From Polyangia bacterium (lineage in GTDB: Bacteria; Myxococcota_A; Polyangia; Fen-1088), in assembly GCA_035648655.1 (NCBI GenBank), contig DASRLC010000143.1, forward strand, positions 1 to 63,367: a DNA stretch of 63,367 nucleotides. The letters run 5' to 3'. The translations under genes and the position numbers were made by a program. Under the pieces are notes generated by a model, which had not been told where the DNA came from, made no database searches, and saw only the letters and a program-made list of their open reading frames with translations. Numbering within the stretch: position 1 is the first letter of the stretch; each line of letters opens with the position of its first letter. Shown one piece after another: positions 17,680-62,732 of the stretch.

Positions 17680-17689
17680 TGGGTGCGAT

Positions 17690-20245: not shown

Positions 20246-20290
20246 GGTGGCGTTCCTTCTGTTGTGCTGAGCTATAGATGTCGGGGGCCC

Positions 20291-22155: not shown

Positions 22156-22338
22156 GTGTGTCTCGCCTTTCTGCCTTCGAGCTCTTCGGTCTTCGCGAGA
22201 CGGCGCTCGAACCGTGCGTCCCCCTCGAACCGCGCGTCGAGAAACACCTGGACCAGCTCGCGAGCCAACTCGCCTCCCGTGACCCGACCACCCAGGCACA
22301 TGACGTTCATGTCGCCACCTACCGCCCCACCCTCGGCT
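22152..22338 (-). pseudogene. C-terminal remnant of ribose-5-phosphate isomerase B
   Basis: In-frame translation 'GGDMNVMCLGGRVTGGELARELVQVFLDARFEGDARFERRLAKTEELE' aligns with the last ~50 aa of RpiB/LacAB (E. coli 'NDTNVLAFGSRVVGLELAKMIVDAWLGAQYEGGRHQQRVEAI'). The N-terminal two thirds are absent. It fills the 183-nt xfp-fba spacer. Confidence 0.6.
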
Positions 22339-24711: not shown

Positions 24712-24730
24712 GGTTCTTCCTCGTTGTGAA

Positions 24731-28130: not shown

Positions 28131-28765
28131 GCCGCCACCGTGTCGCCGCTCTGCAACCCAAGGGCCGTCAGTTGTGCACACGTGGACGAATAGTCCGTGT
28201 GATGAATGCTTCGAATCCCCAACCCCTGGGCGATTTCGACGAACATCGGGGTATTGTCTATGAAGACCACCTTTGGCGCCGGGGCCTGAGCGACATCCAG
28301 CGCCAACCGAAAGATCTCGGCGTCGGGCTTGCGGATCTGGACGAAACACGAGGAAATGAAGGCATCCACCAGCGCAGTCAATTTGAACCGCCGAATACGA
28401 TAGGCGTTCAGCTCCCGTGCTTCGTTGCTAACCACCACGATTTTCAGCCCGTATCGATCCTTGAGGCGCGCGACGAGCGCGATCATCTGCGGGTGAGGCT
28501 TCGATTGTGAATGCATGAACCGCCGAAATTGAGACCGAGTAAAATCTCGTTTCTGACAGAACACGACCAGGTCCAGATAGTCGTCGAGGGTGAGCTTTCC
28601 TTCCTCATAGGTCTCGAAGGTCATGTGGTGCCGCTCCTCCATCTCGGCACCGTCCAACTTGAAGGTCTTCGCGGCTCGTCTCCGAGCGTGACGATCCCAG
28701 CCATCGGTGAGCAGCACGCCACCGATATCGAGAAACAACGTCGTTACTGCCGGTGCCCGTCGCAT
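28127..28765 (-). CDS. HAD-superfamily hydrolase
   Basis: 'LFLDIGGVL' (DxG variant of motif I), 'VVSNE' and 'VFIDNTP'. ATGA overlap with the ackA start. Confidence 0.75.
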   Translation of the reverse strand: MRRAPAVTTLFLDIGGVLLTDGWDRHARRRAAKTFKLDGAEMEERHHMTFETYEEGKLTLDDYLDLVVFCQKRDFTRSQFRRFMHSQSKPHPQMIALVARLKDRYGLKIVVVSNEARELNAYRIRRFKLTALVDAFISSCFVQIRKPDAEIFRLALDVAQAPAPKVVFIDNTPMFVEIAQGLGIRSIHHTDYSSTCAQLTALGLQSGDTVAA

Positions 28766-28800
28766 TTGACCCTAGGGCGCAACTGCCGCTCGTATGGTCG

Positions 28801-33047: not shown

Positions 33048-35902
33048 GACTCTTTCGCCGGCAGTGCCCGTTCGATCGCCTTCGACAGGGCGTCGAGTCC
33101 GCTTCGGACATCTGCGCCGAGATGAACGCGCAACGCCCGCCGGTCGCGCTGCACCAGGACCCGGAAGTCCCCCAGCGCCTGCGCCGCCTTCACGACGCCA
33201 AAGCTGAAGCGATGACCGGGGATCTGGAGATCCTGCGCATCGTCGCAGGTCAGCTGCAGGAAGACCCCGCTCGGAGGTCCGCCCTTGTAGGCCTGCCCCG
33301 TTGAATGAAGGAACCGGGGACCAAAGCCAACACAGGTGGCGACCCGACGGGAATCCCGGACCGTGCCCCGAATCGCCTGGAGCTGGCGATCATGCCGGTC
33401 GTTGCGCTCAATGTAGGCGAGCAACGCGAAGTAGTCGTCGGGTCCCAAGCGCTGGAGGTGGGTCCGCAAGTATCCATGCAGCGTCCTATCAGACCCGGCC
33501 GCCCGATCGAGCGCCAGCTTGTTCTTCTCGTCGGCGAATAGCGTGAGCGGGCCATCTTCGCAGAACGGGATCTCCCGCGGGAGCGCGCCGGTCTTCTCGT
33601 AGGCTTTGGTCAGCGTACGTGCCGCGACCTTGCTCGCCTCGACGTCGGGCTGGTTGAAAGGGTCGATGCCGATGATCGCGCCCGCCACCGCCACCGCGAT
33701 TTCCCAGCGGAAGAACTCCTGTCCGAGATCGTGGGGATCGGCGAGCGCAATGCGCACGACCGGCTGTCCGGCATTCTCGAGCGCGTCGACCGCGGCATCC
33801 TGCGCAGCGTCCGGTGCAGCATCGAGCCGAAGGTACGCGAACAGCCGATCGTTGCCGTAGACTTCGGGCGCGCCGAGGGGCTCACGATCGACGGGGATTA
33901 TTCCCTTGCCCACCTTGCCGGTCGATTCGGCGAGGAGCTGCTCGAGCCACGCGCCGAGCTGCGCAATGCCTGGAGAGGCAATGAGGGTGACTTTGTCGCG
34001 GCCGGATCCGACCGACGTCCCGAGGATCGCGCCGAGCAGGACGCCCGGATTCTGCTCGGGCGGAACGCATGACGCGCACGCGTGCGCCATGATCGCGGTG
34101 CGGTCGAGGAAGCGACCCACGTCGACACCCATGACCGCCGCCGGCACCATGCCGAAGTTGGAGAGCGCGGAATAGCGTCCGCCGATGCCGGGCACCCCGG
34201 AGAAGACCCTTTCGAACCGTTTCTCCTCGGCGATCTTTTGCAGGGCGGAGCCCGGGTCGGTGACCACGATGAAGTGCTTCGGTGCCCTCCCGTCGCCGAC
34301 GATCTGGCGAACGCGATCGTAGAAGTAGTCCTTGAGAATATTGGGCTCCAGTGTCGTGCCGGACTTGCTAGAGACGATAAAGAGTGTCTTCGGAAGGTCG
34401 ATGCGGGCTTCCATGGTCCGGATCTGCGCGGGATCGGTCGAATCGAGGACCAAGAACTCCGGATAACCGCCGATGGGTCCGAACGTTCGCGCCAGGACAT
34501 CGGGACAGAGGCTCGATCCGCCCATCCCCAGCACGACCGCGTATTTGAAGTTGCTCTGGCCCTCCTTGGCGAACGCCGCCAGGCCTCGAGCCAGAGTTTG
34601 CTCCCCGTCGGTACTGTCCAGCCAATCGAGCCACTGGTTCTCGTCGTGCCCCGTCCAGAGCGTCGCGTCGCGCGCCCAAAGCCGCCGCACCTTCCCGCCG
34701 GTGCGCCAGTCCTCGATCGTCGCCTTGACCTCCTCATCGAGCGAGGTCGGCAGTCGATAGCTCATCCGGTCGATAGCCGACCTGAGCACGCCGGCACGTT
34801 TCTTCTCGATCGATCCCAGGAGAGCATCGAACGCCGCGGAGAACCCGCTGACACCCTCGTCGAGGAGGCGCGCGGTCAGGTCGTCGATCGAGATCCCAGT
34901 ACCGGCGAGCGTGGCCAAGACCTGTCTGGCGTCGTCTATGTGTTGGTCGAGCTGGTTCCCTGCTTTGCCATGGTCACGGAAGGCGTCGAGCGTCGACGGT
35001 GGGATCGTGTCGACGGTGTGGGGCCCGATCAGCGATTCGACGTAGATCACGTCGCGAAAGCGCGGATCCTTGCTGCTCGTGCTCGCCCACAAAAGCCGTT
35101 GTGGGTGAGCGCCGGACGCGGCCAGCGACGTCCAGCGCGGGCTGCCGCAGACTTCCTTCCAGTCCTGGTAGGCGAGCTTGGCGTTGGCGATGGCCACCTT
35201 GCCGACGAGATCGCGCAGCGTGGCCTGCTCCGTGGCCGGCGCCGATCTGGCCCGAGCCTCCAGGATCGGATCGACGAGAACGTCGAGACGACTGACGAAC
35301 ATACTGGCCACGCTGGCGACGCGGCTCAGATCTCCCCCGCCCGCGCGGAACGCCTCGAGGCCGTCCATGTAAGCTTCGGCGACCTGGCGACACACGGCGC
35401 GTGAGAAGAGCAGCGTCACGTTGACGTTGATCCCCTGGCCGATGAGCTGTTGAATCGCCGGAATTCCCTCGGGCGTCGCCGGAACCTTGATCATGAGGTT
35501 GTCGCGACGAACGGTGCTCCACAGGCGAACGGCCTCATCGATGGTCGCCTGGGTGTTGTGCGCGAGATAGGGCGAGACCTCCATGCTGACGAACCCGTCG
35601 CGTCTGACGAACTCGAGGTAAACGGAATGGAGGATGTCCGCCGCCTGCTGAATGTCCTCGACGGCTAGCTTTTCGTAGATGGTCGAGGCCGTTTCGTCGT
35701 GGCGATTCTCATAACGCTCCAGAGCTGGACCGTAGTCCGTGCTGCCGGCGATGGCCTTTTCGAAGATGGACGGATTCGAGGTCACGCCGCGGATGCCGTC
35801 CTCCTTCACCAATCGCGCGAGCTCACCGCTTTGAAGGAGGTGGCGTCGGATGTAGTCGAGCCAGACCGACTGGCCGCACTCCTGAATCTCATTTATTCCC
35901 AC
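33044..35902 (-). CDS. bifunctional transaldolase / glucose-6-phosphate isomerase
   Basis: N-terminal 'QSVWLDYIRR', 'GVTSNPSIFEKA' and 'MIKVPAT' (Tal), followed by a ~550-aa PGI-like half. GTG start at 35902. Confidence 0.9.
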   Translation of the reverse strand: MGINEIQECGQSVWLDYIRRHLLQSGELARLVKEDGIRGVTSNPSIFEKAIAGSTDYGPALERYENRHDETASTIYEKLAVEDIQQAADILHSVYLEFVRRDGFVSMEVSPYLAHNTQATIDEAVRLWSTVRRDNLMIKVPATPEGIPAIQQLIGQGINVNVTLLFSRAVCRQVAEAYMDGLEAFRAGGGDLSRVASVASMFVSRLDVLVDPILEARARSAPATEQATLRDLVGKVAIANAKLAYQDWKEVCGSPRWTSLAASGAHPQRLLWASTSSKDPRFRDVIYVESLIGPHTVDTIPPSTLDAFRDHGKAGNQLDQHIDDARQVLATLAGTGISIDDLTARLLDEGVSGFSAAFDALLGSIEKKRAGVLRSAIDRMSYRLPTSLDEEVKATIEDWRTGGKVRRLWARDATLWTGHDENQWLDWLDSTDGEQTLARGLAAFAKEGQSNFKYAVVLGMGGSSLCPDVLARTFGPIGGYPEFLVLDSTDPAQIRTMEARIDLPKTLFIVSSKSGTTLEPNILKDYFYDRVRQIVGDGRAPKHFIVVTDPGSALQKIAEEKRFERVFSGVPGIGGRYSALSNFGMVPAAVMGVDVGRFLDRTAIMAHACASCVPPEQNPGVLLGAILGTSVGSGRDKVTLIASPGIAQLGAWLEQLLAESTGKVGKGIIPVDREPLGAPEVYGNDRLFAYLRLDAAPDAAQDAAVDALENAGQPVVRIALADPHDLGQEFFRWEIAVAVAGAIIGIDPFNQPDVEASKVAARTLTKAYEKTGALPREIPFCEDGPLTLFADEKNKLALDRAAGSDRTLHGYLRTHLQRLGPDDYFALLAYIERNDRHDRQLQAIRGTVRDSRRVATCVGFGPRFLHSTGQAYKGGPPSGVFLQLTCDDAQDLQIPGHRFSFGVVKAAQALGDFRVLVQRDRRALRVHLGADVRSGLDALSKAIERALPAKES

Positions 35903-35938
35903 GCAAACCTCCTCGCCCCTCGATCACCTTTGCCGGCC

Positions 35939-36067
35939 TCACGACGGGCTCTTCGCCGGCGTCACCCAGGAGCCGCTCGTAGCCTGCAGCGCCGGAAAGA
36001 TCTTCTTGTGCGCGAGATCTCCGGTCGCGCCGAAAAAGATCAAGGCGTCCGACGAATCCCCCGTCAT
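35939..36067 (-). pseudogene. N-terminal remnant of glucose-6-phosphate dehydrogenase
   Basis: The 42-codon ORF 'MTGDSSDALIFFGATGDLAHKKIFPALQA...' carries the Zwf NADP-binding N-terminus (GATGDLA.RK..PAL), then diverges and stops. The roughly 450 remaining codons are absent. Its ATG shares one base with the gnd stop (TAATG). Confidence 0.6.
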
Positions 36068-37068
36068 TAGTGCTTCTCTTCGTGTCCGCCGAACTGATAT
36101 CGCAGCGCGGAGAGCACCTTGTCGGCGAAGTCTTCTTCGCCCCGCGACGCGAACCTTTGTGCCAGCGCCGTGCTCAGGACCGGAGCGGGGACACCCTCGT
36201 CGATGGCCGCCTTGAGAGTCCACCGGCCCTCTCCCGAATCGGACACGTGGCCCGCGAACCCGCTCAAGTCGGGGCTCTTCTTCAGCGCGGCGGCGGTGAG
36301 ATCTAGGAGCCATGAACCGATCACGCTGCCGTGCCGCCAGGCTTCGACGATATCGGGAAGGTTCAGGTCGTATTGATAGAGCTCGGGGTGACGAAGCGGC
36401 GCCGTCTCGGCGTCGACGACCCGCTTGGCATTCCCAGCGTTGGCGTGCCGAAGAATGTTGAGCCCTTCGGCGTACGCCGCCATGACCCCGTATTCGATCC
36501 CGTTGTGAACCATCTTGACGAAGTGCCCGGCTCCGGACGGTCCGCAATGGATGTACCCCCGTTGCGGCGGCCGACCCTCATCTCGGCGCCCCTTGGTCGC
36601 GTCGTCCCCGGGTGCCAGGGCGGCAAAGATGCCATCGAGCCGCTTGACGACGGCGGGGCTGCCCCCGATCATCTGGCAGTAACCGCGCTCGAACCCCCAA
36701 ACGCCGCCCGAAGTGCCGACGTCGACATAGTGGACTCCGCGCTCGCCGAGCGTCTTCGCGCGGCGAATGTCATCGTGATAGTACGAGTTCCCCCCATCGA
36801 TGACGGCATCGTCCGCGGTAAGGTGCGGCACCAGCTCCCCGAGGGTGGCCTCTACAACCGCGGCAGGCACCATGATCCAAATCGCCCGCGGTGTCTCCAG
36901 CTTGGCGACCAGATCAACAAGCGAGCTGGCGGCGACCGCACCCGCCTTGACCAGATCCAGCCCCGCCTCTGGATGAACGTCGAACACCACGCACCCGTGG
37001 CCGGCTCCGAGCAGACGCCGGACCATGTTCGAGCCCATTCGACCGAGCCCAACCATTCCAAGTTTCAT
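36067..37068 (-). CDS. gnd: 6-phosphogluconate dehydrogenase, decarboxylating (short Gnd/YqeC type)
   Basis: 'MKLGMVGLGRMGSNMVRRL' Rossmann N-terminus from Met 37068, and 'GHFVKMVHNGIEYG'. Confidence 0.88.
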   Translation of the reverse strand: MKLGMVGLGRMGSNMVRRLLGAGHGCVVFDVHPEAGLDLVKAGAVAASSLVDLVAKLETPRAIWIMVPAAVVEATLGELVPHLTADDAVIDGGNSYYHDDIRRAKTLGERGVHYVDVGTSGGVWGFERGYCQMIGGSPAVVKRLDGIFAALAPGDDATKGRRDEGRPPQRGYIHCGPSGAGHFVKMVHNGIEYGVMAAYAEGLNILRHANAGNAKRVVDAETAPLRHPELYQYDLNLPDIVEAWRHGSVIGSWLLDLTAAALKKSPDLSGFAGHVSDSGEGRWTLKAAIDEGVPAPVLSTALAQRFASRGEEDFADKVLSALRYQFGGHEEKH

Positions 37069-37186
37069 ACTGTTCCCCCGTTCGTCGCCGCTCCGCGTCC
37101 GCACACCGTGGATCGCCTTCGTGACGTTGGGCGTTCATTGCGCTGTAGCCTCAACGCCCTCGCCCAACTGCACCGCAATCTCCCAG

Positions 37187-37335
37187 ACAATCTCCTGTCG
37201 CTGGCGCCCAGCAACTCTCCCTACAGATACGCACCTCCGAGCATTGGGGCCATTCGGGTCTCCCCCGTGTCGGTTGTAAGGGGTTCCGCGAGGGAGGGCA
37301 TTTTCTTCAAAGATTTCGATGTGCTCGACGTCACG
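37187..37335 (-). promoter_or_regulatory. conserved non-coding upstream element, copy 1 (upstream of the gnd array)
   Basis: The reverse complement matches 53241-53387. The first 35 nt are 34/35 identical (cgtgacgtcgagcacaYcgaaatctttgaagaaaa). Further blocks are cccttacaacc, ggggagaccc and gctcggaggtgcgYatctgtaggga (24/25). All frames carry stops, so it is not coding. Confidence 0.55.
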
Positions 37336-40673: not shown

Positions 40674-40734
40674 GTCTCGCCCTTGTTCGGCGCGGGTGAT
40701 CTGGTTCGCGCGATCCCATGCACCCCGGAGGAAC

Positions 40735-51906: not shown

Positions 51907-53151
51907 TCAGCGTCGCGGAGCCATCCGGGACCGGGTTGGAAGATCGCGCGTCGAGGCCGGGGCGCGAGCGACCGAGGGCGGACTGCTCGGCACCCGGGCG
52001 TGGATCTCCATCTGCATGCTCGAGGGCGTCTCGCTCACGATCTCTATTCCAGCTGGGGCCGTCGTCACGATCCGATAGGTGTGGAGACCGGCGCTCGTCC
52101 CGGACAGGTCGACGAACGAGACCACGGAATCTGGCGGCAGCACCTCGAGCTCGCGCCGCGAGCTGCGCAGCTCGACGGCGACGCTGGTGTACCGAGGTGG
52201 GTCGAAGACCAGCCCGTCATTCACCCCTCGAATTTCGAGCGGCACGACGCGCGTCATTGCATGCGAGCGGTCGAGCGCCAGGGCGGCCCAAGCCGCGAGC
52301 ACACCGCCAAAAATCACCAGATGCGGCCACTGGCTGACAAGACGCACCCGCCTCTCGGCGGCACGTCGGGGCGCGGCGGACGGTCCTTCGGGGCGGGCCT
52401 TTGCCAGTATCTCTCGCAGGTGGCCCGGGTCCCGCATCAGCTTCATCGCGCTCCCCACCGCCAGATGAACCGTTCCGTGTTCCTCGCTCACGCAGATGAT
52501 CAGCGCATCGGTGGCCTGCGCCAACCCAACCGCGGCGCGATGCCGGGTGCCGAAGCTTGCGTCCTCGGTTTCGGTCGCCAGGGGCAACACCACCCCGGCT
52601 CGGGTCAGCCGATCGGCGGCGACGACGACGGCGCCGTCGTGTAAGGGGGACGCCGCCGTGAAGATGGCCTCGAGCATTTCGACCGAAAGCCGCGCATCGA
52701 CGAGAATGCCCTTGGTCGCGAGATCGAAAATGGAATCGTGGCACGGCAACACGATGAGGGCACCCTTTCGTCTGGCGGCCAACGCGAAGGCCGCCGCGAC
52801 GACAATTGTATCGGTGTCGTCGAGCGTCTCGCCGGCAGTCCGTCTCGTCAGCCAGCGCAGCGGGCTGACGCGGCTGAGCCCACGTCGAATCTCGTGTTGG
52901 AAGATCACCACGACGACGATGGTCGCGACCGCACTCACGGCGGACAGGAGGTACGACGTCAGAATGAGACCGAGGTGGCTGGCGATCCACGACACAGCCA
53001 ACAGGGTCAGAAGACCGCAGGCCACCTGAACCGCGATCGTGTGCTTGAGCCATCTGTAGGCCCACGAGAAAAGAGCCGTCAGAACCAATACGTCGACGGC
53101 GTCTTGCCAGCGAAGGCCGTGGGTCAAAACGGAGAGGGCGACTCGGTGCAT
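51907..53151 (-). CDS. cdaA: diadenylate cyclase CdaA fused to a YbbR (CdaR-type) domain
   Basis: Three N-terminal TM segments, DAC motifs 'PLHDGAVVV' and 'GTRHRAAVGL', a fourth TM 'HLVIFGGVLAAWAALAL', then 'VPLEIRGVNDGLVFDPP..VAVELRSSRRELEVLPPDSVVSFVDLSG..AGLHTYRI', typical of a YbbR repeat. Confidence 0.85.
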   Translation of the reverse strand: MHRVALSVLTHGLRWQDAVDVLVLTALFSWAYRWLKHTIAVQVACGLLTLLAVSWIASHLGLILTSYLLSAVSAVATIVVVVIFQHEIRRGLSRVSPLRWLTRRTAGETLDDTDTIVVAAAFALAARRKGALIVLPCHDSIFDLATKGILVDARLSVEMLEAIFTAASPLHDGAVVVAADRLTRAGVVLPLATETEDASFGTRHRAAVGLAQATDALIICVSEEHGTVHLAVGSAMKLMRDPGHLREILAKARPEGPSAAPRRAAERRVRLVSQWPHLVIFGGVLAAWAALALDRSHAMTRVVPLEIRGVNDGLVFDPPRYTSVAVELRSSRRELEVLPPDSVVSFVDLSGTSAGLHTYRIVTTAPAGIEIVSETPSSMQMEIHARVPSSPPSVARAPASTRDLPTRSRMAPRR

Positions 53152-53240
53152 GAGCGTTCTACAGCTAGCGTTAGCATGCCCGACTTCCCGCTCACACTCA
53201 GCGGACAGCTTCTCAGCCCGTGAGCTCTGCCGGCAGTCGC

Positions 53241-53387
53241 CGTGACGTCGAGCACACCGAAATCTTTGAAGAAAAAATCATTCCCTAGGGAATCCCTTAC
53301 AACCGGCGCGGGGAGACCCAGAGTGGTCCCAACGCTCGGAGGTGCGCATCTGTAGGGAACGTTTGCCGAGGCGACAGCGGAGACGGT
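53241..53387 (+). promoter_or_regulatory. conserved non-coding upstream element, copy 2 (upstream of the PRC/BON/HdeA array)
   Basis: Matches the reverse complement of 37187-37335 (see copy 1). Contains the CRP/FNR-like dyad cGTGA-N6-GCACa (53241-53256), the A/T-rich tttgaagaaaaaat, and a perfect 14-bp palindrome attccctagggaat (53280-53293). Confidence 0.55.
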
Positions 53388-53506
53388 CCCGCGATTTAAC
53401 CACTTTGCTGGACCCGTCGCGGCCACGAACGATCTCGTCGCTCGGCGCGACGCCTCGAGCGACGCAGCTATCACCCATTCCGAACCGCCCGAACGGAGGG
53501 ACTCCC

Positions 53507-54316
53507 ATGCTACGAAGTCTAAAGGATCTCGAACGATACAAGGTGACCGCCACCGACGGCGACGTGGGACACGTGGTGAATTTTCTCTTGGACGACGAGC
53601 GGTGGGTCGTTCGCTATCTGGTCGTCGAGACCGGGGGCTTCTTCAATCGGCCGCGGGTGCTCATCTCGCCAATCTTTTTCGGTCAGGTCGAATGGGCGAC
53701 CCACTGCTTCAGCTTGGCGTTGACGGTGGACAAGGTCAAGAACAGCCCGAGCCTCGACGTGGACATGCCGGTCTCGCGGCAGCATGAGCGAGACTATTAC
53801 GGCTACTACGGATATCCCTATTACTGGGGATATTTGGCGCCCTGGGGCATGGGTGCCTCCCCCGCCTTGCTCGCAGCCGGCCGGAGAAACGAAGAGCCTT
53901 CTCCGCACGTCGAAGAGACCAGCGGTGATGTTCACCTTCGGAGCGTCAAGGAAGTCCGCGGATACCACGTTCAGGGAGCCGACGAAGCGATCGGTCACAT
54001 TGACGACTTCATCGTCGACGATGAGACCTGGGAAATTCGCTACCTAGTCGTGGACACCAGCAATTGGTGGTTCGGCAAGCGGGTGCTGGTTTCGCCACAC
54101 TGGGCGAGCCGCGTGAGTTGGTCGGAGCGCAAGGTCCACCTCGACCTGTCGCGACAAGCGATCAAGGACAGTCCTGAATGGAATGCAACCGTCGGCGTCA
54201 ATCGGGAGTACGAGACACGTCTGTATGACTACTACGGACGGCCGGCGTACTGGTCGCCCAGCGATCGACCTTCAAGTGCCGAGGGACGAGACGCTTCGGC
54301 ACACCACCATGGGTAG
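53507..54316 (+). CDS. tandem PRC-barrel domain protein
   Basis: ATG at 53507 follows GGAGGG. 'LKDLERYKVTATDGDVGHVVNFLLDDERWVVRYLVVETG' is repeated as 'VRGYHVQGADEAIGHIDDFIVDDETWEIRYLVVDTS'. Confidence 0.8.
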   Translation: MLRSLKDLERYKVTATDGDVGHVVNFLLDDERWVVRYLVVETGGFFNRPRVLISPIFFGQVEWATHCFSLALTVDKVKNSPSLDVDMPVSRQHERDYYGYYGYPYYWGYLAPWGMGASPALLAAGRRNEEPSPHVEETSGDVHLRSVKEVRGYHVQGADEAIGHIDDFIVDDETWEIRYLVVDTSNWWFGKRVLVSPHWASRVSWSERKVHLDLSRQAIKDSPEWNATVGVNREYETRLYDYYGRPAYWSPSDRPSSAEGRDASAHHHG

Positions 54317-54374
54317 CGGACCACTTCGTGGAGCGTCCACGGCAGGCAAACAACGGCGGAAAGCGAGATAGGCG

Positions 54375-54632
54375 ATGATTCATTCGTGGTGGTTATTGTG
54401 GATGGTAATGATGCTCATTTTTGTCATTTCGCCGATTGGGTACGGCTGGGGTTACCGGGGCTGGGGTCCACCGTACCCGAGATATATCCAGAGACGCCGA
54501 GGCCTACGCGCCGTCACAGCCGGCGCTTCCACGGGCTTCGACCACCACGCCTGGGGGCGCGGCGGTGACCTGGTCTGGATGGTCTTCGCCATCGGAATGA
54601 TCTGGGTGGTCGCGGCTATGTGGTGGCGCTAG
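54375..54632 (+). CDS. small 2-TM membrane protein
   Basis: 85 aa with Trp-rich hydrophobic ends 'WWLLWMVMMLIFVISPIGYGW' and 'LVWMVFAIGMIWVVAAMWW'. No family recognised. Confidence 0.45.
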   Translation: MIHSWWLLWMVMMLIFVISPIGYGWGYRGWGPPYPRYIQRRRGLRAVTAGASTGFDHHAWGRGGDLVWMVFAIGMIWVVAAMWWR

Positions 54633-54656
54633 TTGAACCACGTCAAGGGACGACGA

Positions 54657-56231
54657 ATGACATCGTCACGGCTCACGCGACGCCCACGGGTTACGGTCCA
54701 TTGCAGATGGCTCCGCCTCATCCTCGTCTCCTCGGGCGCTCAACTCTGCATCGCGTCGGTGTCACACGCCGCCACCAAGACGCCGACCATAACGGATCGG
54801 GGTCTCACCTCTGCGGTTGAATCGAGTCTACGATACGACAAGGGGGTATCGCCCGTTGGCGTAGACGTCGATACCAGTCAGGGCATCGTCACGCTGTCGG
54901 GGACGGTTCACGACCTCCTCGCCAAGGAACGCGCCCTCAGGATTGCCGAGAGCATTCGAGGGGTGCTGGGGGTAATTGACCGCACGGTCGTCACGCCGGT
55001 GTCCCGCTCCGACGAGGACATCCGCAAGACCATCCTTTGGTCCCTGCTGGAGGATCCAGCGACGAAGGCCTACCAGATTGGCGTTTCGGTGAAGGGCGCC
55101 GTAGCGACGTTGACAGGTACGGTTGGGTCGTATGCAGAGCGGCAGCTCGCCGAACGGCTCGCCAAGGGTGTCAAGGGCGCCAAGGACGTGCGCAATGACA
55201 TCACGATCAGCTACTTCCAGAAACGCACCGACGCGGAAATCGCCTCCGACGTAAAGGCCCGCTTTCAGTGGGATATCTGGCTCAACGGCGATGCGCTCAC
55301 CGCCGCGGTGAAGGACGGCAAGGTGACCGTGAGCGGTACGATCGGCAGCGCGATCGGCAAAGAACGGGCGGCCGATGACGCCTGGGTCAGCGGCGTGATG
55401 TCGGTCGACGACACGGCCCTCAAGGTTGAACCACGTACGGGCCACGACGCACGCCACCAATTGAAGTACGTGGTCAAATCGGACGCCGATATCAAGCTGG
55501 CGATACAGGCTGCGTTTCGCCTCGACCCTCGGGTGGCGGCCTTCGCCCCCGACGTGACGGTCGAAGGCGGCGGAGTCATTCTGGGCGGCTCGATAGGAAA
55601 CCTGAAGGCGAAGGCCGCGGCCGAACAGGACGCCCACAATATCGTGGGCGTCTGGCGGGTCGACAACCTGCTGACCGTCCGTTCGAAAGGCTCGTTCGTC
55701 GATTCGGACCTGGAGAAGCAGCTAAAGACGGCTGTGGCGTGGGATCCCGTCCTGGACCGCTCGACGATCGATATCGCCGTCATCAATCGCGTCGCCTACC
55801 TCTCGGGAGAGGTTGATTCACGTTTCGAAAGTGTCGAAGCCGAGGATGTCGCGTCGCGAATAGACGGCGTGCTCTTGGTCCGCAACCATCTGAAGGTCGA
55901 GCCGGCCGATGTGTTCATCTACGACGACCTACCTTTCTTTTCGTACTTCGACTGGCCCTACTACCACCGGTCGTCCTCCGACATGTACCAAGCTCGGGAG
56001 CCGGAGCCATACCTGAGCGACGCGCGGATCAAAAAGGATATCGAGGACGCGTTTTTCTGGAGTCCGTTCGTGGATCGCGGCGCCATCACGGTGGCGGTCC
56101 ATGGAGGTGTTGCGACTTTGACAGGAACCGTCGGCAATTGGATCGGCTGGAGAGAGGCCGACAAGGACGCACGCAAGAACGCCGGGGACGTCCTCAATCG
56201 ACTGACCATCAAGCCGGGTGCCTGGTGGTGA
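54657..56231 (+). CDS. secreted protein with six BON (OsmY-type) domains
   Basis: Six repeats of the pattern 'D..I...V......D......I.V.V..G.VTLSG.V.......A.......GV..V.N.L.V'. Signal-like N-terminus. Start is 54633 or 54657. Confidence 0.85.
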   Translation: MTSSRLTRRPRVTVHCRWLRLILVSSGAQLCIASVSHAATKTPTITDRGLTSAVESSLRYDKGVSPVGVDVDTSQGIVTLSGTVHDLLAKERALRIAESIRGVLGVIDRTVVTPVSRSDEDIRKTILWSLLEDPATKAYQIGVSVKGAVATLTGTVGSYAERQLAERLAKGVKGAKDVRNDITISYFQKRTDAEIASDVKARFQWDIWLNGDALTAAVKDGKVTVSGTIGSAIGKERAADDAWVSGVMSVDDTALKVEPRTGHDARHQLKYVVKSDADIKLAIQAAFRLDPRVAAFAPDVTVEGGGVILGGSIGNLKAKAAAEQDAHNIVGVWRVDNLLTVRSKGSFVDSDLEKQLKTAVAWDPVLDRSTIDIAVINRVAYLSGEVDSRFESVEAEDVASRIDGVLLVRNHLKVEPADVFIYDDLPFFSYFDWPYYHRSSSDMYQAREPEPYLSDARIKKDIEDAFFWSPFVDRGAITVAVHGGVATLTGTVGNWIGWREADKDARKNAGDVLNRLTIKPGAWW

Positions 56232-56296
56232 TGACGGTCGACGCCGGTTGATGCAAGCCCATCGATTAGCGACCCCGTGACATTCAAGGAGACATC

Positions 56297-56662
56297 ATGA
56301 CCAAGCTAACTCTACTGACAATTGGGATATCCGTCGCCCTCGCGGGCTCGACTCTGGCGGCGGCGCCCGCACCCACCGGCAGCGCCGACAAGACCGCCAA
56401 GACGGACAAGACCGCCAAAACGGCCAAGGGGCCCAACCCGATCAAGATGACCTGTGAGGATTTCCTCACATTGGAGGACGTTGCGAAGCCGAAAGTCGTC
56501 TACTGGGCCGAAGGATTTGACCGCAAGGGCAAAGCAGACGACGCCACGGTCGACGTCGAAACGACCGACCGTCTCGTGCCCGTGATCGTCGAAGTCTGCC
56601 AGAAGGAGCCGAAGGCCTCGTTCTGGAAAAAGATGAAGGCCGAGTTCAAGAAGGTCTTCTGA
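56297..56662 (+). CDS. HdeA/HdeB-family periplasmic acid-stress chaperone-like protein
   Basis: Signal peptide, then 'MTCEDFLTLEDVAKPKVVYWAEGF..KGKADDATVDVE....LVPVIVEVCQKEPKASFWKKMKAEFKK'. This aligns with E. coli HdeA 'WTCEDFLAVDESFQPTAVGFAEAL..KDKPEDAVLDVQ....VTPAIVQACTQDKQANFKDKVKGEWDK', including both Cys. Confidence 0.72.
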   Translation: MTKLTLLTIGISVALAGSTLAAAPAPTGSADKTAKTDKTAKTAKGPNPIKMTCEDFLTLEDVAKPKVVYWAEGFDRKGKADDATVDVETTDRLVPVIVEVCQKEPKASFWKKMKAEFKKVF

Positions 56663-56711
56663 TCGTCGAAACAATCCATCCGCTGACGCATTTACCAGGA
56701 AGAAGGCGACC

Positions 56712-56933
56712 ATGTCGAACCACAATTCCCATTCGGCCCATCACCACGTCCGTCCGGACGAGCCGGTGGTGACTCCCGTTCAACCGTCGAGCAAGCATTC
56801 CGCGTCGTCCGAAAGCATCGCTGCGCGAGCCTACGAGAAGTTCGTTGCCCGCGGGCGGACGCACGGCGGCGATCGAGAGGATTGGGCGGAGGCAGAGCGG
56901 GAGTTGACCCGCGGCGAGGCAGGGAAGGCTTAG
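56712..56933 (+). CDS. DUF2934-family small protein
   Basis: 'IAARAYEKFVARGRTHGGDREDWAEAEREL' matches the DUF2934 core. Confidence 0.65.
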   Translation: MSNHNSHSAHHHVRPDEPVVTPVQPSSKHSASSESIAARAYEKFVARGRTHGGDREDWAEAERELTRGEAGKA

Positions 56934-57012: not shown

Positions 57013-59469
57013 GTGGAGCCCTGTCCCGAAGCGAACGGACATTCGGTGACCTTCCCCCCTCGTCTCGCACCCGGCGGACCGGGAGGTCGGGCGCGTTGGA
57101 CCTCCAGCGCCAAGAGTGGCGTTGGTACGGCGCTCAGCAACAAGAGTCGCGTCTGGTTCACCTTGAGCCACGGGATCCTCAACGAGATCTATTATCCCCG
57201 CATAGACCAGGCCTGTATCCGCGACATGGGGCTCATCGTCACGGACGGAGCCACCTTCTTCTCGGAGGAAAAGCGCGATGCCGACTCTCGCGTTCGCTGG
57301 CTGGCCGATGGTGTTCCAGCGTTTCACCTGACCAATACCGCCCGCGATGGCCGCTACAAACTCGACAAAGAAATCGTAGCCGATCGGGATCGCGACACGG
57401 TCTTGCAAAGGACCCGCTTTCTGCCGCTGCGGGGCGCTCTCTCCAGCTACCACCTTTACGTGTTGCTCGCGCCGCACCTCGGAAACCAGGGAGGCGGCAA
57501 CAGCGCCTGGGTGGACGACTTCGAAGGGACGCCCTTTCTATTCGCACGACGGAACGGTAGTGCGCTCGCCTTGGCGTGCTCCGCCGTATGGACTAAGCGA
57601 TCGGTCGGCTATGTGGGATCGTCGGACGGCTGGCAGGATCTGAAGGCGCACAAGAAGATGACCTGGGAATATTCCCACGCCGAGAACGGCAACGTGGCGC
57701 TGGTCGGTGAGATCGACCTGATCGCGTCGCAAGGAGAGTTCGTCTTGGCGTTGGGGTTCGGCAGCCAACCGGAGGAGGCGGCTCGAAACGCCGTCACGAG
57801 CCTGCGGGGCGGCTTTGACGGAGCGAAAGAAGGGTTTCTCGCCGGGTGGCAGGACTGGGCCGCGGCCCTCGCGCAGCCGAAGAAGGGCTCCACCACACCG
57901 AATGGCCTGTCGCAGAAGAGCCTGGCTGTTCTGCGGTCACATGAATCCAAAATGGCGCCGGGCGGGCTCATCGCCAGCCTTTCCATACCTTGGGGCTTCA
58001 GCAAAGGTGACAACGACCTCGGTGGCTACCATCTGGTCTGGTCGCGGGACATGGTGGAGACGGCAGGCGGCTTGTTGGCCGCCGGTGCGCACGACGAGGT
58101 ACGTCGCGTCCTGGCCTATTTGCGCGGAACCCAGCAAACCGATGGCCACTGGTCGCAAAACATGTGGCTGGATGGCTCGCCGTATTGGAACGGCATTCAG
58201 ATGGACGAGACGGCGTTGCCCATCCTCCTCGTGGACTTGGCCTTTCGCCAAAAGGCACTGACGAAGGCCGAGGTGGTTCAGCTATGGACCATGGTGCGGC
58301 GCGCAGCCGGTTACCTAGTGCGTAACGGCCCGGTCAGCCCGCAGGATCGCTGGGAAGAAGATCCCGGCTATTCGCCGTTTACCGTCGCAGCGCAAATCGC
58401 CGCGCTCCTGGCGGCGGCGGATCTGGCTGATTTGAGCAATGAGGCTGCCCTCGGCAGCTACCTCCGCGAGACAGCCGACGTCTGGCACTCATCCATCGAC
58501 CGCTGGATGTACGCTTCGGAGACGGATTGGTGCCGGCGGTACGACGTCAAGGGCTACTACGTCCGAATCGCACCCAAACAGACGGGCGGAGCCGACGCGC
58601 GCTTCGAGAGCGGCGTCCGGATCAAGAACGTCGCGGCCTCCGAGGACACCCTGGCCGCCATCCATCTGGTGAGCCCCGACGCCCTGGCGCTGGTGCGCTT
58701 CGGCCTCCGCGCCGCGGACGATCCGCGGATGCGCGACACGACGAAGGTCATCGACGCGTTGCTCAAAATCGAGACGCCGACCGGACCGACGTGGCATCGA
58801 TATAACGGCGATGGCTACGGCGAGCACGAGGACGGGACGCCGTTCGACGGAACCGGGATTGGTCGGGGCTGGCCCCTGCTGACCGGCGAGCGGGCCCATT
58901 ACGAGCTGGCGCGGGGACAGGTGGACAGCGCGAAGGCTCTCTTGGCGACGATGGAATCCTTCGCCAACGAGGGCGGCCTGATCTCGGAGCAGGTATGGGA
59001 CTCGCCAGACATCGCGGCCCACGAGCTCCACCTCGGCCGGCCATCGGGTTCGGCCATGCCGCTCGTGTGGGCGCACGCCGAGCACCTCAAGCTGCGACGC
59101 TCGCTGGAAGACGAGCGCCTCTTCGACTTGCCGCCACAGACAGTCCGGCGGTACCTGACCGACCACACCGAGTCCCCCCGTATGATCTGGCGCTTCAACC
59201 ACAAGATCCGATCGATGCCGCCGGGAAAGCTGTTGCGCATCGAAACGCTGGCGCCGGCCGTCGTTCACTGGAGCGCCGACGACTGGCGTACCGTCCAGGA
59301 CGCGACGACCCACGATGCCGGCTTGGGGATTCATTTCGCCGATCTTACGACCAGAGCGCTTCCTGAAGGACAACGCGTTTTCTTTACGTTCTACTGGCCG
59401 CACGGCGATCACTGGGAAGGTACGAACTTCACGGTCGCGGTCGGGTCCCTTGGCGTCGCCTCCATCTGA
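57013..59469 (+). CDS. GH15 glucoamylase / glucodextranase-type glycoside hydrolase
   Basis: N-domain 'VWFTLSHGILNEIYYPRIDQA' and catalytic (alpha/alpha)6 region with 'HLVWSRD' and 'DRWEEDPGYSPFT' (the WEE general-acid context). Confidence 0.85.
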   Translation: MEPCPEANGHSVTFPPRLAPGGPGGRARWTSSAKSGVGTALSNKSRVWFTLSHGILNEIYYPRIDQACIRDMGLIVTDGATFFSEEKRDADSRVRWLADGVPAFHLTNTARDGRYKLDKEIVADRDRDTVLQRTRFLPLRGALSSYHLYVLLAPHLGNQGGGNSAWVDDFEGTPFLFARRNGSALALACSAVWTKRSVGYVGSSDGWQDLKAHKKMTWEYSHAENGNVALVGEIDLIASQGEFVLALGFGSQPEEAARNAVTSLRGGFDGAKEGFLAGWQDWAAALAQPKKGSTTPNGLSQKSLAVLRSHESKMAPGGLIASLSIPWGFSKGDNDLGGYHLVWSRDMVETAGGLLAAGAHDEVRRVLAYLRGTQQTDGHWSQNMWLDGSPYWNGIQMDETALPILLVDLAFRQKALTKAEVVQLWTMVRRAAGYLVRNGPVSPQDRWEEDPGYSPFTVAAQIAALLAAADLADLSNEAALGSYLRETADVWHSSIDRWMYASETDWCRRYDVKGYYVRIAPKQTGGADARFESGVRIKNVAASEDTLAAIHLVSPDALALVRFGLRAADDPRMRDTTKVIDALLKIETPTGPTWHRYNGDGYGEHEDGTPFDGTGIGRGWPLLTGERAHYELARGQVDSAKALLATMESFANEGGLISEQVWDSPDIAAHELHLGRPSGSAMPLVWAHAEHLKLRRSLEDERLFDLPPQTVRRYLTDHTESPRMIWRFNHKIRSMPPGKLLRIETLAPAVVHWSADDWRTVQDATTHDAGLGIHFADLTTRALPEGQRVFFTFYWPHGDHWEGTNFTVAVGSLGVASI

Positions 59470-59483
59470 CGCGGGCACGACGG

Positions 59484-60857
59484 ATGGCACCTAAAGCCGG
59501 GTCGCAGGTAACCGGGTTCGTATATGTCGCGGTCGGCGTCGCGGCTATCGGCGGCCTGCTCTTTGGCTATGATACCGGCGTCATTTCCGGGGCGATACTG
59601 TTCATTACGCGCCAGTTTTCCCTGTCGGCGACAATGGAAGAGGTCGTCGTTAGCTCCGTTCTGGTTGGCGCTGTCATTGGAGCCGTCATCGGCGGTGTCT
59701 TGACCGACCGCTTTGGGCGCCGCACGATGATAATCGTAGCTGGCATCATCTTTACCGGGAGCGCAATCGGCACGGCGCTGGTACCGTCGGTGACCTGGTT
59801 GATTGCGGCCAGGATGGTAAGCGGCGTCGGCATTGGCATCGCGTCGTTCATTTCTCCCATGTACATCGCCGAGCTGGTCCCAGCAAAGGTTCGCGGTGCC
59901 CTGGTGGCGGTCAACATGTTGGCGATCACCACTGGCATCGTGGTCGCCTACCTGGTGGACTATGCGTTGTCTGGCATCCAGGGATGGCGATACATGTTTG
60001 CTTTCGCGGCCATACCGTCAGCCGGCCTGGTCATCGGAATGTGGCGGCTGCCTGACAGCCCACGCTGGCTGATAAGCAAGGCGAAGATCGACGAAGCGCG
60101 AAAGGTATTGCAGCGCGTTCGGACCGCCTCAGACGTGGGGCCAGAAATCGCAGACATCCAGCAAAGCATGAAAAAGCAACGCCAAGGCGGGATGGCCGAG
60201 CTCTTTGCCCCATCCATCAGGATGCCTTTGATCGTCGGCCTGGGGCTGGCCGTCTTTCAGCAGATAACGGGCATCAACACCGTCATCTACTATGCTCCGA
60301 CCATTTTCAAGTTCGTGGGCATCAGCGGTACGGGTCCAGCGATCCTGGCCGGCGCCGCGCTGACCATAGTGATGTGGTTATTTCATATATTGGCCATCTT
60401 CTTGCTGGATCGCGTCGGCCGACGTCCGCTATTGTTAGTCGGCGTCGCCGGGCAAATCGTCGGCCTGGGGATCCTGGGGGCCTCTTTCGAGCTCCAGCAG
60501 TTGGCGAGTATAAAGAGCTATCTGGCGCTGGGCGGCCTGGGTATCTACGTAGCGTGTTTCGCCTTTGGGCTGGGGCCGATCTTCTGGCTGCTGATTTCCG
60601 AGATTTATCCGCTCGAGGTCCGCAGCGCGGCGATGAGCGCGGTGACGGTTACCAACTGGGGAATGAACCTGGCCGTCGCCGTGACATTCTTGACTCTGGT
60701 CGGCGTTCTGGGGCGCGCGGGGACCTTTTGGTTGTACGGAGTAATCGCCGTCGGAGCCTGGATCTTTTTCTACCTGCGGGTGCCGGAGACGAAGGGCAAA
60801 ACCCTCGAACAGATTGAAGAGCACTGGCGAGGGGGAAAGCCCGCACGGGCATTGTAG
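59484..60857 (+). CDS. MFS sugar porter (sugar:H+ symporter)
   Basis: 'GYDTGVISGA', 'DRFGRR', 'PDSPRWL' and 'PETKGKTLEQIE'. 14 nt after the GH15 stop. Confidence 0.9.
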   Translation: MAPKAGSQVTGFVYVAVGVAAIGGLLFGYDTGVISGAILFITRQFSLSATMEEVVVSSVLVGAVIGAVIGGVLTDRFGRRTMIIVAGIIFTGSAIGTALVPSVTWLIAARMVSGVGIGIASFISPMYIAELVPAKVRGALVAVNMLAITTGIVVAYLVDYALSGIQGWRYMFAFAAIPSAGLVIGMWRLPDSPRWLISKAKIDEARKVLQRVRTASDVGPEIADIQQSMKKQRQGGMAELFAPSIRMPLIVGLGLAVFQQITGINTVIYYAPTIFKFVGISGTGPAILAGAALTIVMWLFHILAIFLLDRVGRRPLLLVGVAGQIVGLGILGASFELQQLASIKSYLALGGLGIYVACFAFGLGPIFWLLISEIYPLEVRSAAMSAVTVTNWGMNLAVAVTFLTLVGVLGRAGTFWLYGVIAVGAWIFFYLRVPETKGKTLEQIEEHWRGGKPARAL

Positions 60858-60920: not shown

Positions 60921-62732
60921 TCAGTCTCCGAAGAGCGCCATCCCCTCCGCCAAGGCTTCGGCCATCCCCGCTTGGGTCACGATGCCCGCGACCGACGTCT
61001 TCGGGGCAGTCGCGGCGGTCCGTTCTCCAGACGTAACAACTGCGACCGACGAGTGGAACGCGGCCATCTTGGCCAACAGATCGACGAGCGTCTCGTCACC
61101 GGGAATGACTATGAAATCTTGACGCGCGACCTCGGCCAACCGGCTCGCCGATTTGAGGCGCGATTCGTGGCCCGAGGCCCACCCGCGCGCGATTACCCCA
61201 ACCACTTCTTCTCCCCGCAGGAGCACGACGTGAACTGGCAAGTGGGCGTCGTCGCTCAGCTCCAGCGCGTCGGGCGGATCGTCGGCCGACATCACTTGGA
61301 CCGGCTCCAATCGGAGATCCGACACATGCTGGACCAAGTGGGTGTTGGCCTGCAAGGCCTGTGGCATGTAATGCCCACGCCGGGCGAGCTTCATGGTGTA
61401 GATGCTCTCCGCGAAGAGGACGCGCCGCAGGCCATAGCTGACGGCGGCCGTAATGGTGAGCGGCAAGATCACGCCGTAATCGAGCGTCATCTCGAAGATC
61501 ATCACGATCGCCGTCAGCGCGGCGCCGGTCGCCCCGGCCACGAGACCCGCCATGCCGGCCAACGCGAACGCCGCGGGATTGACGTGGAGGCTGGGCAGAC
61601 AAGCGCGTAGACCGATCCCGTATGCCGCACCTAGGGTCGCGCCCATGAAGAGCGAGGGTGAGAAGACGCCGCCCGATGCGCCGGATCCGAGCGTGAGGGA
61701 GGTGGCCAGCAGCTTCAACGCCAGCAGCGCAAGCAGGAGGAAGATCCCGTTCAGCGTCCCAGAGAGGATATCGAGGATGGTCGCGTAGCCGACCCCTTCG
61801 ACATAGTAATGGCCTGCGAAGCGCATGAACAGGACGGCGATGATCCCCACGCCCAGCATTCCGACCGCGTGCCGCAGATAGGGCCGCTCCGGAATGAACC
61901 GCTCGAAGAGATCCTCCGCGCCGTAGATCGCGCGAATGAAGGCCGCGGAGACCAGAGCCATCAGACAGCCGAGCAGGACGTACGCCGGCAAGAGCGCAAA
62001 ACCCGCCCCCACGTTCGCGGCCGTGGCGGGCACGTCGAAGGCCGGATGGTTCCCGAGCAGATAGCGCCCCACATAGGTAGCGGTCGCTGTCGCCAGCGCC
62101 ACCGGGACCAACGTGCGGACGCTGATCTCGAGCATGAGGATCTCGACCGCGAAGAGAACGCCGCCGATCGGGGTGTTGAATGTGGCGGCGATCCCGGCGC
62201 CGCCGCCCGCCGCCACCAGCGTCGCGAGCTGCCAGCGCGACGCCCGCGCCAGTTGCCCGACCGAGGAAGCGAAGGCCGCCCCGATCTGGATGATCGGTCC
62301 CTCGCGCCCGACGGATCCGCCGCTGCCGATGGAGAGCGCGGAGGCCATGGATTTGACCAGCGCCACCACCGGGCGGATGACCGCTTTCTTGTAATAGACG
62401 GCGTCCATCACCTCGGGCACGCCGTGTCCCTTCGCCTCCGGGGCCAGGTTCTTCACCAGGAAGACGACGAGCACGCTTCCGATCGCCGGCGCGAAGACCA
62501 CCCAGTGGCCCCACGGCCCGACGGGCGTGTGCAGGTTGCTGTCGTAGCGCCAGGAGAGGTCCTGCAAGAAGAAGAGGTTGTGCAAGAAGCCGATGAGGAC
62601 CCGGAATCCGAAGGCTCCGACGCCCGCGACGATCCCGACGACGACCGACAGCAGAGACAACGCAAGCGTGTTGAGGGCGTGATGTCTCTCGGCGCCGGCA
62701 GCAGCACCCCCGATCCGTCGCTCAGTGACCAT
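60921..62732 (-). CDS. ClC-family chloride channel / Cl-:H+ antiporter with C-terminal CBS pair
   Basis: 'GSGGSVGREGP', 'GIAATFNTPIGGVLFAVE' and 'GASGGVFSPSLFMG', plus a C-terminal region of about 150 aa of CBS type. Confidence 0.9.
   Translation of the reverse strand: MVTERRIGGAAAGAERHHALNTLALSLLSVVVGIVAGVGAFGFRVLIGFLHNLFFLQDLSWRYDSNLHTPVGPWGHWVVFAPAIGSVLVVFLVKNLAPEAKGHGVPEVMDAVYYKKAVIRPVVALVKSMASALSIGSGGSVGREGPIIQIGAAFASSVGQLARASRWQLATLVAAGGGAGIAATFNTPIGGVLFAVEILMLEISVRTLVPVALATATATYVGRYLLGNHPAFDVPATAANVGAGFALLPAYVLLGCLMALVSAAFIRAIYGAEDLFERFIPERPYLRHAVGMLGVGIIAVLFMRFAGHYYVEGVGYATILDILSGTLNGIFLLLALLALKLLATSLTLGSGASGGVFSPSLFMGATLGAAYGIGLRACLPSLHVNPAAFALAGMAGLVAGATGAALTAIVMIFEMTLDYGVILPLTITAAVSYGLRRVLFAESIYTMKLARRGHYMPQALQANTHLVQHVSDLRLEPVQVMSADDPPDALELSDDAHLPVHVVLLRGEEVVGVIARGWASGHESRLKSASRLAEVARQDFIVIPGDETLVDLLAKMAAFHSSVAVVTSGERTAATAPKTSVAGIVTQAGMAEALAEGMALFGD

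Follow-up and report, generated by a model that had tools for sequence, protein, structure and literature searches.

Peatlands store a large share of soil carbon. Their bacteria are mostly uncultured, and it is poorly understood how they cope with alternating anoxia, acidity, and starvation; a locus in the metagenome-assembled genome (MAG) of a Polyangia bacterium (assembly GCA_035648655.1) bears on this question. We analyzed contig DASRLC010000143.1 of this genome from position 1 to 63,367, and this whole stretch of 63,367 nucleotides (nt) is referred to as the window. Its positions 53507-56933 carry five consecutive plus-strand genes for a tandem PRC-barrel protein (PRC269), a miniprotein (mini85), a protein with six BON domains (BON6), an HdeA-like protein, and a DUF2934 protein. 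What do these genes do, and do they belong together? The original prediction, made from the DNA letters and their translations, had read them as part of a "resting-cell protection programme" shared with an "energy-maintenance" array in the window. In outline this idea was right, and comparative genomics now supports it. We consider it reasonably probable that the five genes are the front of a probable seven-gene unit (PRC269, mini85, BON6, hdeA-like, DUF2934, a GH15 glucoamylase, and a sugar porter of the major facilitator superfamily [MFS]) in an accessory, horizontally shared island for surviving without growth.

Five tandem genes that look like one transcription unit

All five open reading frames (ORFs) were present in the ORF listing exactly as originally described. 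PRC269 (53507..54316; 269 amino acids [aa] from ATG) is a cytoplasmic tandem PRC-barrel protein. It is followed by mini85 (54375..54632; 85 aa), a miniprotein with two predicted membrane segments, and by the secreted BON6 (54657..56231; 524 aa from ATG). The run is completed by the genes of a periplasmic HdeA-family protein with a signal peptide and both disulfide cysteines (56297..56662; 121 aa) and of a small, cytoplasmic DUF2934 protein (56712..56933; 73 aa). The gaps between the ORFs measure 58, 0 or 24, 65, and 49 nt, the second value depending on whether BON6 starts at TTG 54633 (532 aa) or ATG 54657 (524 aa); alignment of homologs favors the ATG.

A Shine-Dalgarno-like purine-rich stretch was found ahead of each of the five starts. 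No terminator-like sites were found in the gaps of the run, and the gaps folded no more stably than shuffled sequence (z-scores −0.09 to +0.99), with no stable hairpins. With its genes on the same strand, its short gaps, its putative ribosome-binding sites, and no terminator-like hairpins between genes, the run looks like one transcription unit.

The four domain calls of the original prediction (PRC, BON, HdeA, and DUF2934) all scored above the Pfam thresholds. The proteins of the run scored below the NCBIfam equivalog cut-offs; they are family members, not orthologs of characterized proteins.

BON6, PRC269, and mini85 are linked across genomes

Neighborhoods were fetched around BON6 homologs and complemented by tblastn searches with the window proteins, yielding 28 non-redundant loci. 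The related loci were retrieved with the BON6 alignment as the query; a single BON6 sequence gave none. PRC269/mini85 or glycogen, pentose-phosphate, or phosphoketolase genes were found within approximately 10 kb of BON6 at 23 of the 28 loci, and the chance expectation for such linkage is a few percent per locus. By class, PRC269-like genes were present at 13 loci, mini85 at 7 (behind PRC269 or BON6), and glycogen, pentose-phosphate, or phosphoketolase genes at 13.

The arrangements were inspected individually. Locus L009, the BON6 of which is 91% identical to that of the window, has the identical order cdaA / PRC269-mini85-BON6-HdeA-DUF2934-GH15. At L003 (BON6 77%), all five genes are present in two runs, DUF2934-PRC269-mini85-YflT-HdeA being divergent from DUF4142-BON6-Tsp. 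A metagenome relative (L010; BON6 81%) carries one array, BON6-PRC269-mini85-gnd-zwf-tkt-tal/pgi. Two genomes of the same genus (G021, contig C13, and G023) carry a co-directional array, PRC269-mini85-gnd-tal/pgi-(pgm)-glgP-(HAD)-ackA, which extends to xfp in G021. Comparative genomics strongly supports the link to the "energy-maintenance" array: PRC269-mini85 directly heads its genes in G021 and G023 and is joined head-to-tail to them at L010, there with BON6 in front. Across phyla, genes of the array are likewise neighbors of BON6, PRC269, and mini85. The G021 island also holds genes for universal stress proteins (USPs), MgtC, an M50 peptidase, and DUF2934. In other loci, mini85 heads tal-pgi/pgm/glgP, lying directly ahead of these genes (L051), or stands behind BON6 and beside Usp, CBS, CLC, and PRC genes (L053). 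In the Myxococcales MAG fen_1158 (contig 998; L019, 4469-14140), three BON6 and four PRC269 genes alternate head-to-tail, an array that, by its sequence, we take to be a local amplification of the BON6/PRC269 pair.

Putative regulators adjoin the island as well. At L011 (1999-5084) and L051 (1-1850), a PAS-rich HisKA_3 kinase and a GerE-type response regulator adjoin island genes. The window has an OmpR-type pair instead (49809-51840), which is also kept beside the island at L003 and L009.

This tight genomic linkage gives BON6, PRC269, and mini85 a concrete, testable context. Our literature searches found no paper describing this gene combination. The locus points to a shared, probably transferable set that combines a glycogen energy-maintenance route with three widespread uncharacterized families.

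A shared element precedes the run and its partner array

The original prediction had placed the run directly downstream of a conserved element, and this was correct. The element in front of PRC269 (copy 2; 53241..53379, plus strand) matches a second stretch in front of gnd (copy 1; 37199..37335, minus strand) with 84% identity over 141 nt. Exactly two copies were found in the 6.05-Mb assembly. Copy 1 precedes the partner array (16813..37104, minus strand), the genes of which were identified by Pfam scans, in the order gnd, zwf, tal-pgi, pgm, glgP, HAD, ackA, P-type ATPase, xfp, fba, tpi, P-type ATPase, and ppk2.

Copy 2 contains a CRP/FNR-like TGA-N6-GCA dyad, an A/T-rich stretch, and a AGGGAATCCC core. 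The dyad reads TGA-CGTCGA-GCA in both copies and has 5/6 bases of the FNR/Anr consensus TGA-N6-TCA; similar strings are frequent in this GC-rich genome. An ortholog of the element was found upstream of PRC269 at L009. Diverged orthologs with the core AGGSAATCCCC were found upstream of PRC269 in the same-genus genomes G021 and G023, where the core lies approximately 48 nt upstream of an extended −10-like box, TG-TATAT. A longer core, AGG(G/C)AATCCCC(G/A)ACG (window 53285-53300), is common to both copies and to three same-genus loci (L046:10085-10230, L049:7835-7975, and L048:9461-9560), again upstream of PRC269. This core is a candidate site for a regulator or a sigma factor. A blastn search with the element gave no match in the same-genus loci; the short core was visible only by manual alignment.

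No Rfam family reached its gathering score over the window, and no relevant match at E ≤ 1 was obtained in the leader region 53100-53560. Control by a c-di-AMP riboswitch of the ydaO/kimA type was thus rejected, since the leader had no Rfam ydaO-yuaA match.

How did two arrays come to carry the same element of approximately 140 nt? Since the same-genus genomes have the element ortholog before PRC269, copy 2 is probably the original and copy 1 derived. Judging from five upstream regions, the simplest history would be that an ancestral PRC269-mini85-gnd...xfp array was split in the lineage of the window and that its control region was copied before gnd, which would explain why both arrays carry the element. 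After the split, PRC269-mini85 would have come to head BON6-HdeA-DUF2934-GH15-MFS. Same-genus genomes retain the ancestral-type array unbroken.

An accessory run with a foreign composition

Among 3.4-kb windows of the genome, the run falls at the 1.9th percentile, with a GC content of 0.610 compared with a genome mean of 0.676 (standard deviation 0.029). On its flanks, the cdaA gene, the kinase gene, and the Bat operon have genome-typical GC contents. We also searched 60 related genomes, 25 of them from the same genus. No BON6 ortholog was found in these 60 relatives (one weak match had 29% identity), nor was any member of the HdeA family (0/60). PRC269 was found in 6 of the 60, two of which are same-genus genomes with 76-79% identity. 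Thus, the run is an accessory, low-GC, compositionally foreign segment.

The genome has two pgm genes, the island copy (31344-33047, minus strand) and a native copy (contig C247:430-2106), which are 61% identical. The native copy is common to nearly all same-genus genomes (60-63%). The island copy is 75-81% identical to copies that adjoin BON6 in Verrucomicrobiota MAGs; being closer to these than to the native copy, it looks like a xenolog that arrived with the island. The xfp of the window is 83% identical to the L007 copy and only 56-60% identical to most same-genus copies. As a side observation, the island xfp of G021 (C13:197082-199442; L047, 4085-6442) was matched piecewise in different frames with one in-frame TGA, and it is either a decaying gene or the product of assembly errors.

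Among named genomes, BON6 was found with 50-61% identity in five phyla, represented by MAGs of Verrucomicrobiota, Fibrobacterota, Elusimicrobiota, Planctomycetota, and Myxococcota. The Stordalen bog/fen and SPRUCE peat sets account for about half of these MAGs. The original prediction had noted neither the accessory, foreign character of the run nor its sharing across phyla. This distribution bears on the possibility that the genes serve a myxobacterial developmental (myxospore) program, in which glycogen use would be combined with a coat or other protection of the resting cell. The host is indeed a Polyangia MAG with co-located glycogen-mobilizing genes. However, the gene set is present in Verrucomicrobiota, Fibrobacterota, Elusimicrobiota, and Planctomycetota, which form no myxospores, and BON6/PRC269 was not found in most of the same-genus genomes searched. 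We regard the developmental explanation as highly improbable.

PRC269 is predicted to be a two-barrel protein and mini85 is a conserved gene

PRC269 matched Pfam PRC (PF05239) in two stretches (4.4e-14; 52.7 bits, cut-off 21.2). Each of its two barrels is followed by a PVSRQxE...YYGxPxYW motif, and its MLRSLK start is conserved across 23-24 aligned homologs. Like the DUF2934 protein, it has no signal peptide. In the AlphaFold2 model (predicted local distance difference test [pLDDT] 74.6, predicted template modeling score [pTM] 0.73), two PRC barrels are packed against each other. A sequence search of the PDB gave chance-level matches only; the fold search did succeed. Its best match was the archaeal CdpB1/CdpB2 heterodimer 8qzo (E 1.4e-8; target-normalized template modeling score 0.65-0.75), and reaction-centre H subunits and further PRC-barrel proteins were also matched. 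We considered whether PRC269 is the photosynthetic reaction-centre subunit H itself (PuhA, TIGR01150) and rejected this, since it scored 52 bits against a cut-off of 200.

The two barrels predicted for PRC269 can be superposed on the CdpB1-CdpB2 heterodimer. Archaeal CdpB PRC-barrel dimers are recruited to the membrane protein CdpA and act at a membrane-anchored ring (PMC10120694, PMC12126565). A gene for a membrane miniprotein likewise comes after PRC269 wherever mini85 adjoins it, CdpA being the partner in archaea. The differences are considerable. Sequence identity to CdpB is only 11%, PRC269 is bacterial and has both barrels in one chain, its YYGxPxYW motifs are not described for CdpB, and no evidence ties it to cell division.

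For mini85, no Pfam or NCBIfam match was obtained. It has two hydrophobic peaks that flank a YGWGYRGWGPPYPRYIQRR loop. We found 279 clusters of homologs of approximately 85 aa, all annotated as hypothetical, which share the invariant loop YGWGYR(G/K)WG(P/A)P(Y/F)PRYIQRR between two hydrophobic segments. The homolog clusters, the invariant loop, and the two hydrophobic segments show that the 85-aa ORF is a real conserved gene. As a hypothesis, mini85 could possibly be the inner-membrane anchor of PRC269. At L052 (7001-14192), a mini85 homolog was found before an EF-hand protein gene and an operon for an F-type ATPase of the AtpR/ATPase_gene1 type (N-ATPase-like). Judged by its genes, this is another energy-related setting for mini85.

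BON6 belongs to a large six-BON family

BON6 matched Pfam BON (PF04972) in six stretches (4e-77; 254.9 bits, cut-off 27), and its AlphaFold2 model (pLDDT 74.3, pTM 0.68) has six alpha-beta-beta-alpha-beta units. A signal peptide (...SHA/ATK) was read from the sequence. A Cys in the signal region does not form part of a lipobox and is not shared by the family. BON6 is conserved over its full length in 22 homologs, and the family shares an aromatic disordered linker ahead of the sixth BON domain and a C-terminal GAW-W tail. Searches gave more than 1100 matches at E ≤ 1e-10, more than 120 of them full-length with at least 55% identity. The original prediction had called the protein unusually long. 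This holds in comparison with the characterized OsmY, DolP, and BonA, which have two BON domains each, but six are standard within this family of more than 1100 matches.

Among structures in the PDB, none with more than two BON domains was found; the matches were OsmY (8rjx), DolP (7a2d), and BonA (6v4v). These three are the best sequence and structure matches of BON6, with which they share the BON fold and a periplasmic location, and by analogy a holdase or phospholipid-binding role is plausible. BON6 differs from them in its six domains, the lack of a lipobox, the aromatic linker, and the GAW-W tail. Assignment to OsmY (NCBIfam NF007858) was rejected because BON6 scored 99.8 bits against a cut-off of 174 and has six BON domains in 524 aa compared with two in approximately 200 aa. 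Assignment to DolP/YraP (NF008247) was rejected as well (40.1 bits, cut-off 184).

A plasmid origin of BON6 was also rejected, since PLSDB contained no close homolog; the best match, with 34.5% identity, was in Hymenobacter. The plasmid concerned, CP014769.1 (L055, 123590-142936), is mobilizable and belongs to Hymenobacter psoromatis, a lichen bacterium from Antarctica that is in culture. It encodes at least two multi-BON proteins of approximately 480 aa (34% identity to BON6), one of them directly beside a PPK2 gene (43% identity to that of the window). Hymenobacter psoromatis could offer a culturable entry point for multi-BON proteins.

Could the locus then respond to osmotic stress or drying? 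In that case, BON6 would correspond to OsmY in an enlarged form, trehalose or glucans would be the substrates of GH15, compatible sugars would pass through the MFS porter, and c-di-AMP would be the osmotic signal. OsmY is the best sequence and fold match of BON6, a distant multi-BON protein stands beside PPK2 on the plasmid of a lichen bacterium, and cdaA, encoding a CdaA-like diadenylate cyclase (51907..53151, minus strand; DAC 5e-32, CdaA_N 7.8e-9), is adjacent. The original prediction had pointed to this gene, and it is divergently adjacent as described; the adjacency was seen only in the window and at L009, so we give it little weight. Moreover, the leader has neither a c-di-AMP riboswitch nor another Rfam family, GH15 scores above the glucoamylase equivalog cut-off and does not fit the trehalase model, and the habitats are waterlogged, not dry. 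We therefore consider an osmotic or desiccation role very unlikely.

HdeA-like and DUF2934 proteins and the downstream genes

The HdeA-like protein matched Pfam HdeA (PF06411) with 3.6e-21 (75.7 bits, cut-off 22). Its entire mature chain could be aligned with Escherichia coli HdeA (1bg8; 4e-12), and both TCEDFL and the second Cys lie within the aligned part. Its signal peptide, read from the sequence, is MTKLTLLTIGISVALAGSTLA before AAP (...TLA/AAP). The equivalog model for HdeA proper (NCBIfam NF007576) gave 68.7 bits against a cut-off of 85, and this assignment was rejected. The protein resembles HdeA/HdeB, the enterobacterial acid-activated chaperones, in its full-length mature homology, both cysteines, the signal peptide, and the Lys-rich C-terminus. 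It differs in having an extra Ala/Lys/Thr-rich N-terminal spacer, and its gene lies in a Polyangia stress island, not in an acid-fitness island.

The DUF2934 protein matched Pfam DUF2934 (PF11154) with 9e-12 (44.9 bits, cut-off 22), and a sequence search of the PDB returned nothing. Paralogs are present on contigs C562 and C103 of the genome, and orthologs adjoin PRC269 at L003 and L009 and in G021.

Downstream, the glucan 1,4-alpha-glucosidase gene GH15 (57013..59469, plus strand; TIGR01535 780 bits, cut-off 741.9) probably continues the transcription unit of the run. It lies 16 nt behind DUF2934 at L009. In G021, it is directly behind a second PRC269 gene on contig C5, where the order PRC269-GH15-MFS recurs. 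In the window, the MFS sugar porter gene (59484..60857, plus strand; Pfam Sugar_tr 4e-117) follows 14 nt after GH15.

One further neighbor had been cited in support of a resting state, an HPF-like gene at 40735-41049 (plus strand). We could not confirm it and give it little weight: it gave no Pfam match at E ≤ 0.001, being scanned as part of ORF 40615-41049, and no PDB sequence match at E ≤ 1.

A proposed program for survival without growth

The scenario that we infer for co-transcription, the inducing signal, and every biochemical role is as follows. A shortage of energy or oxygen, and probably acid stress too, would act through a regulator on the shared element, which would turn on both units. 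The partner array would make ATP by substrate-level phosphorylation from stored glycogen via the pentose-phosphate pathway and phosphoketolase/acetate kinase, and GH15 and the MFS porter would supply glucose. BON6 and the HdeA-like protein would be exported by their signal peptides and might act as periplasmic holdases or membrane-binding protectants, comparable to OsmY/DolP and HdeA. PRC269, as a covalent PRC-barrel pseudo-dimer, and the DUF2934 protein would act in the cytoplasm. The place of mini85 would be in the inner membrane, where it may hold PRC269.

Several observations weigh against this scenario. HdeA and DUF2934 were linked to BON6 at only 2 of the 28 loci, both from close relatives of the window. 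The order and orientation of BON6, PRC269-mini85, HdeA, and DUF2934 vary between genomes; as judged from these loci, the set is linked, but not as an obligate operon. The FNR-like dyad deviates from the consensus at one of six bases, a genome-wide search allowing mismatches gave hundreds of matches and was uninformative, and no CRP/FNR gene was found among the scanned ORFs of the window. We know of no member of the BON6, PRC269, mini85, or DUF2934 families with a known biochemical function. Finally, the BON6 tree is mostly sorted by phylum and needs only three label changes, the smallest number possible, and its backbone is unresolved. Cross-phylum transfer is suggested by the patchy distribution, the GC content, and the xenologous pgm and other metabolic genes; the tree does not prove it.

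The scarcity of HdeA beside BON6 also shows that the "envelope/acid-stress" label given to the run in the original prediction was too narrow. It is relevant to a dedicated acid-resistance operon for acidic peat, in which the HdeA-like protein and BON6 would protect the periplasm, a CLC protein would move protons and chloride, and the glycogen link would be secondary. Such an operon would fit the genuine HdeA-family protein with both cysteines and the origin of many BON6-bearing MAGs from acidic bogs and fens. It would also fit the gene for a CLC-type chloride channel/antiporter at the end of the island region (60921..62732, minus strand). CLC genes recur near BON6 at L007, L033, and L053, so the CLC gene of the window may belong to the same gene set. 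However, HdeA is as rare beside BON6 as stated and absent from all 60 relatives, and the genes are also present in MAGs from fens, which are near-neutral habitats. Moreover, BON6 is linked most strongly and most widely to USPs and to genes for glycogen metabolism, phosphoketolase, and acetate kinase, a pattern that speaks for a shortage of energy or oxygen. An operon dedicated to acid resistance is thus unlikely.

The variable gene order raises another question, namely whether there is a functional unit at all. The genes could be mere neighbors, each with its own promoter and a role unrelated to the others, and the similarity of the upstream stretches could result from neutral duplication. The gaps of 49-65 nt could hold promoters, and a promoter scan was uninformative for this organism. 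Against this, the same families are recurrently linked across five phyla in several arrangements, all five genes occur together in three lineages and two layouts, and PRC269-mini85 is joined to the metabolic array in same-genus genomes. Mere neighborhood therefore seems quite improbable to us, and we favor the island for survival without growth.

A more specific form of this reading can be proposed tentatively, and we hold it to be rather doubtful. PRC269, mini85, and BON6 would be the conserved core of a horizontally spread "persistence island" of wetland and peat bacteria in at least five phyla. The island would protect the envelope and, coupled to this, yield ATP from stored glycogen via phosphoketolase, and PRC269, a fused CdpB1/B2-like pseudo-dimer, would dock on mini85 at the inner membrane as a novel type of switch or scaffold of the non-growing state.

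Comparison with known systems

The closest characterized analog is the low-oxygen-activated lxa locus of Burkholderia cenocepacia. Genes for BON-domain "phospholipid-binding" proteins are among the most induced of lxa (BCAM0280 221-fold and BCAM0307 89-fold up). Besides these, lxa encodes acetate kinase, a cation ATPase, and USPs, and it has CRP/FNR regulators and a TGA-N6-TCA motif; the locus serves anoxic survival of an aerobe, not growth (PMC3721108, PMC6127331). Like lxa, the island described here is accessory and joins genes for BON proteins, acetate kinase, and a cation P-type ATPase with genes for the turnover of a storage polymer. In the window these include BON6, ackA, and two P-type ATPase genes. 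No USP genes were found in the window itself; they are present in the same-genus island and at L053. The two systems differ in their BON proteins, which are short (approximately 23 kDa) and lipoprotein-like in lxa, whereas BON6 is secreted and has six BON domains. They also differ in the stored polymer, since lxa uses polyhydroxyalkanoate and has no phosphoketolase, whereas the window has glycogen and phosphoketolase genes. Genes for PRC269, mini85, HdeA, and DUF2934 are not reported in lxa.

In Mycobacterium tuberculosis, the DosR (DevR) dormancy regulon is switched on as a whole under hypoxia, when the cells survive without growing; it comprises USPs, chaperone-like proteins, cation ATPases, and central-carbon enzymes. 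The gene families differ from those of the window, which has an OmpR-type regulator pair upstream. The kinase and GerE-type regulator that adjoin island genes at L011 and L051 are of the same type as DosS/DosR. The locus may be regarded as a natural counterpart, in environmental bacteria, of both lxa in Burkholderia and the DosR regulon in mycobacteria.

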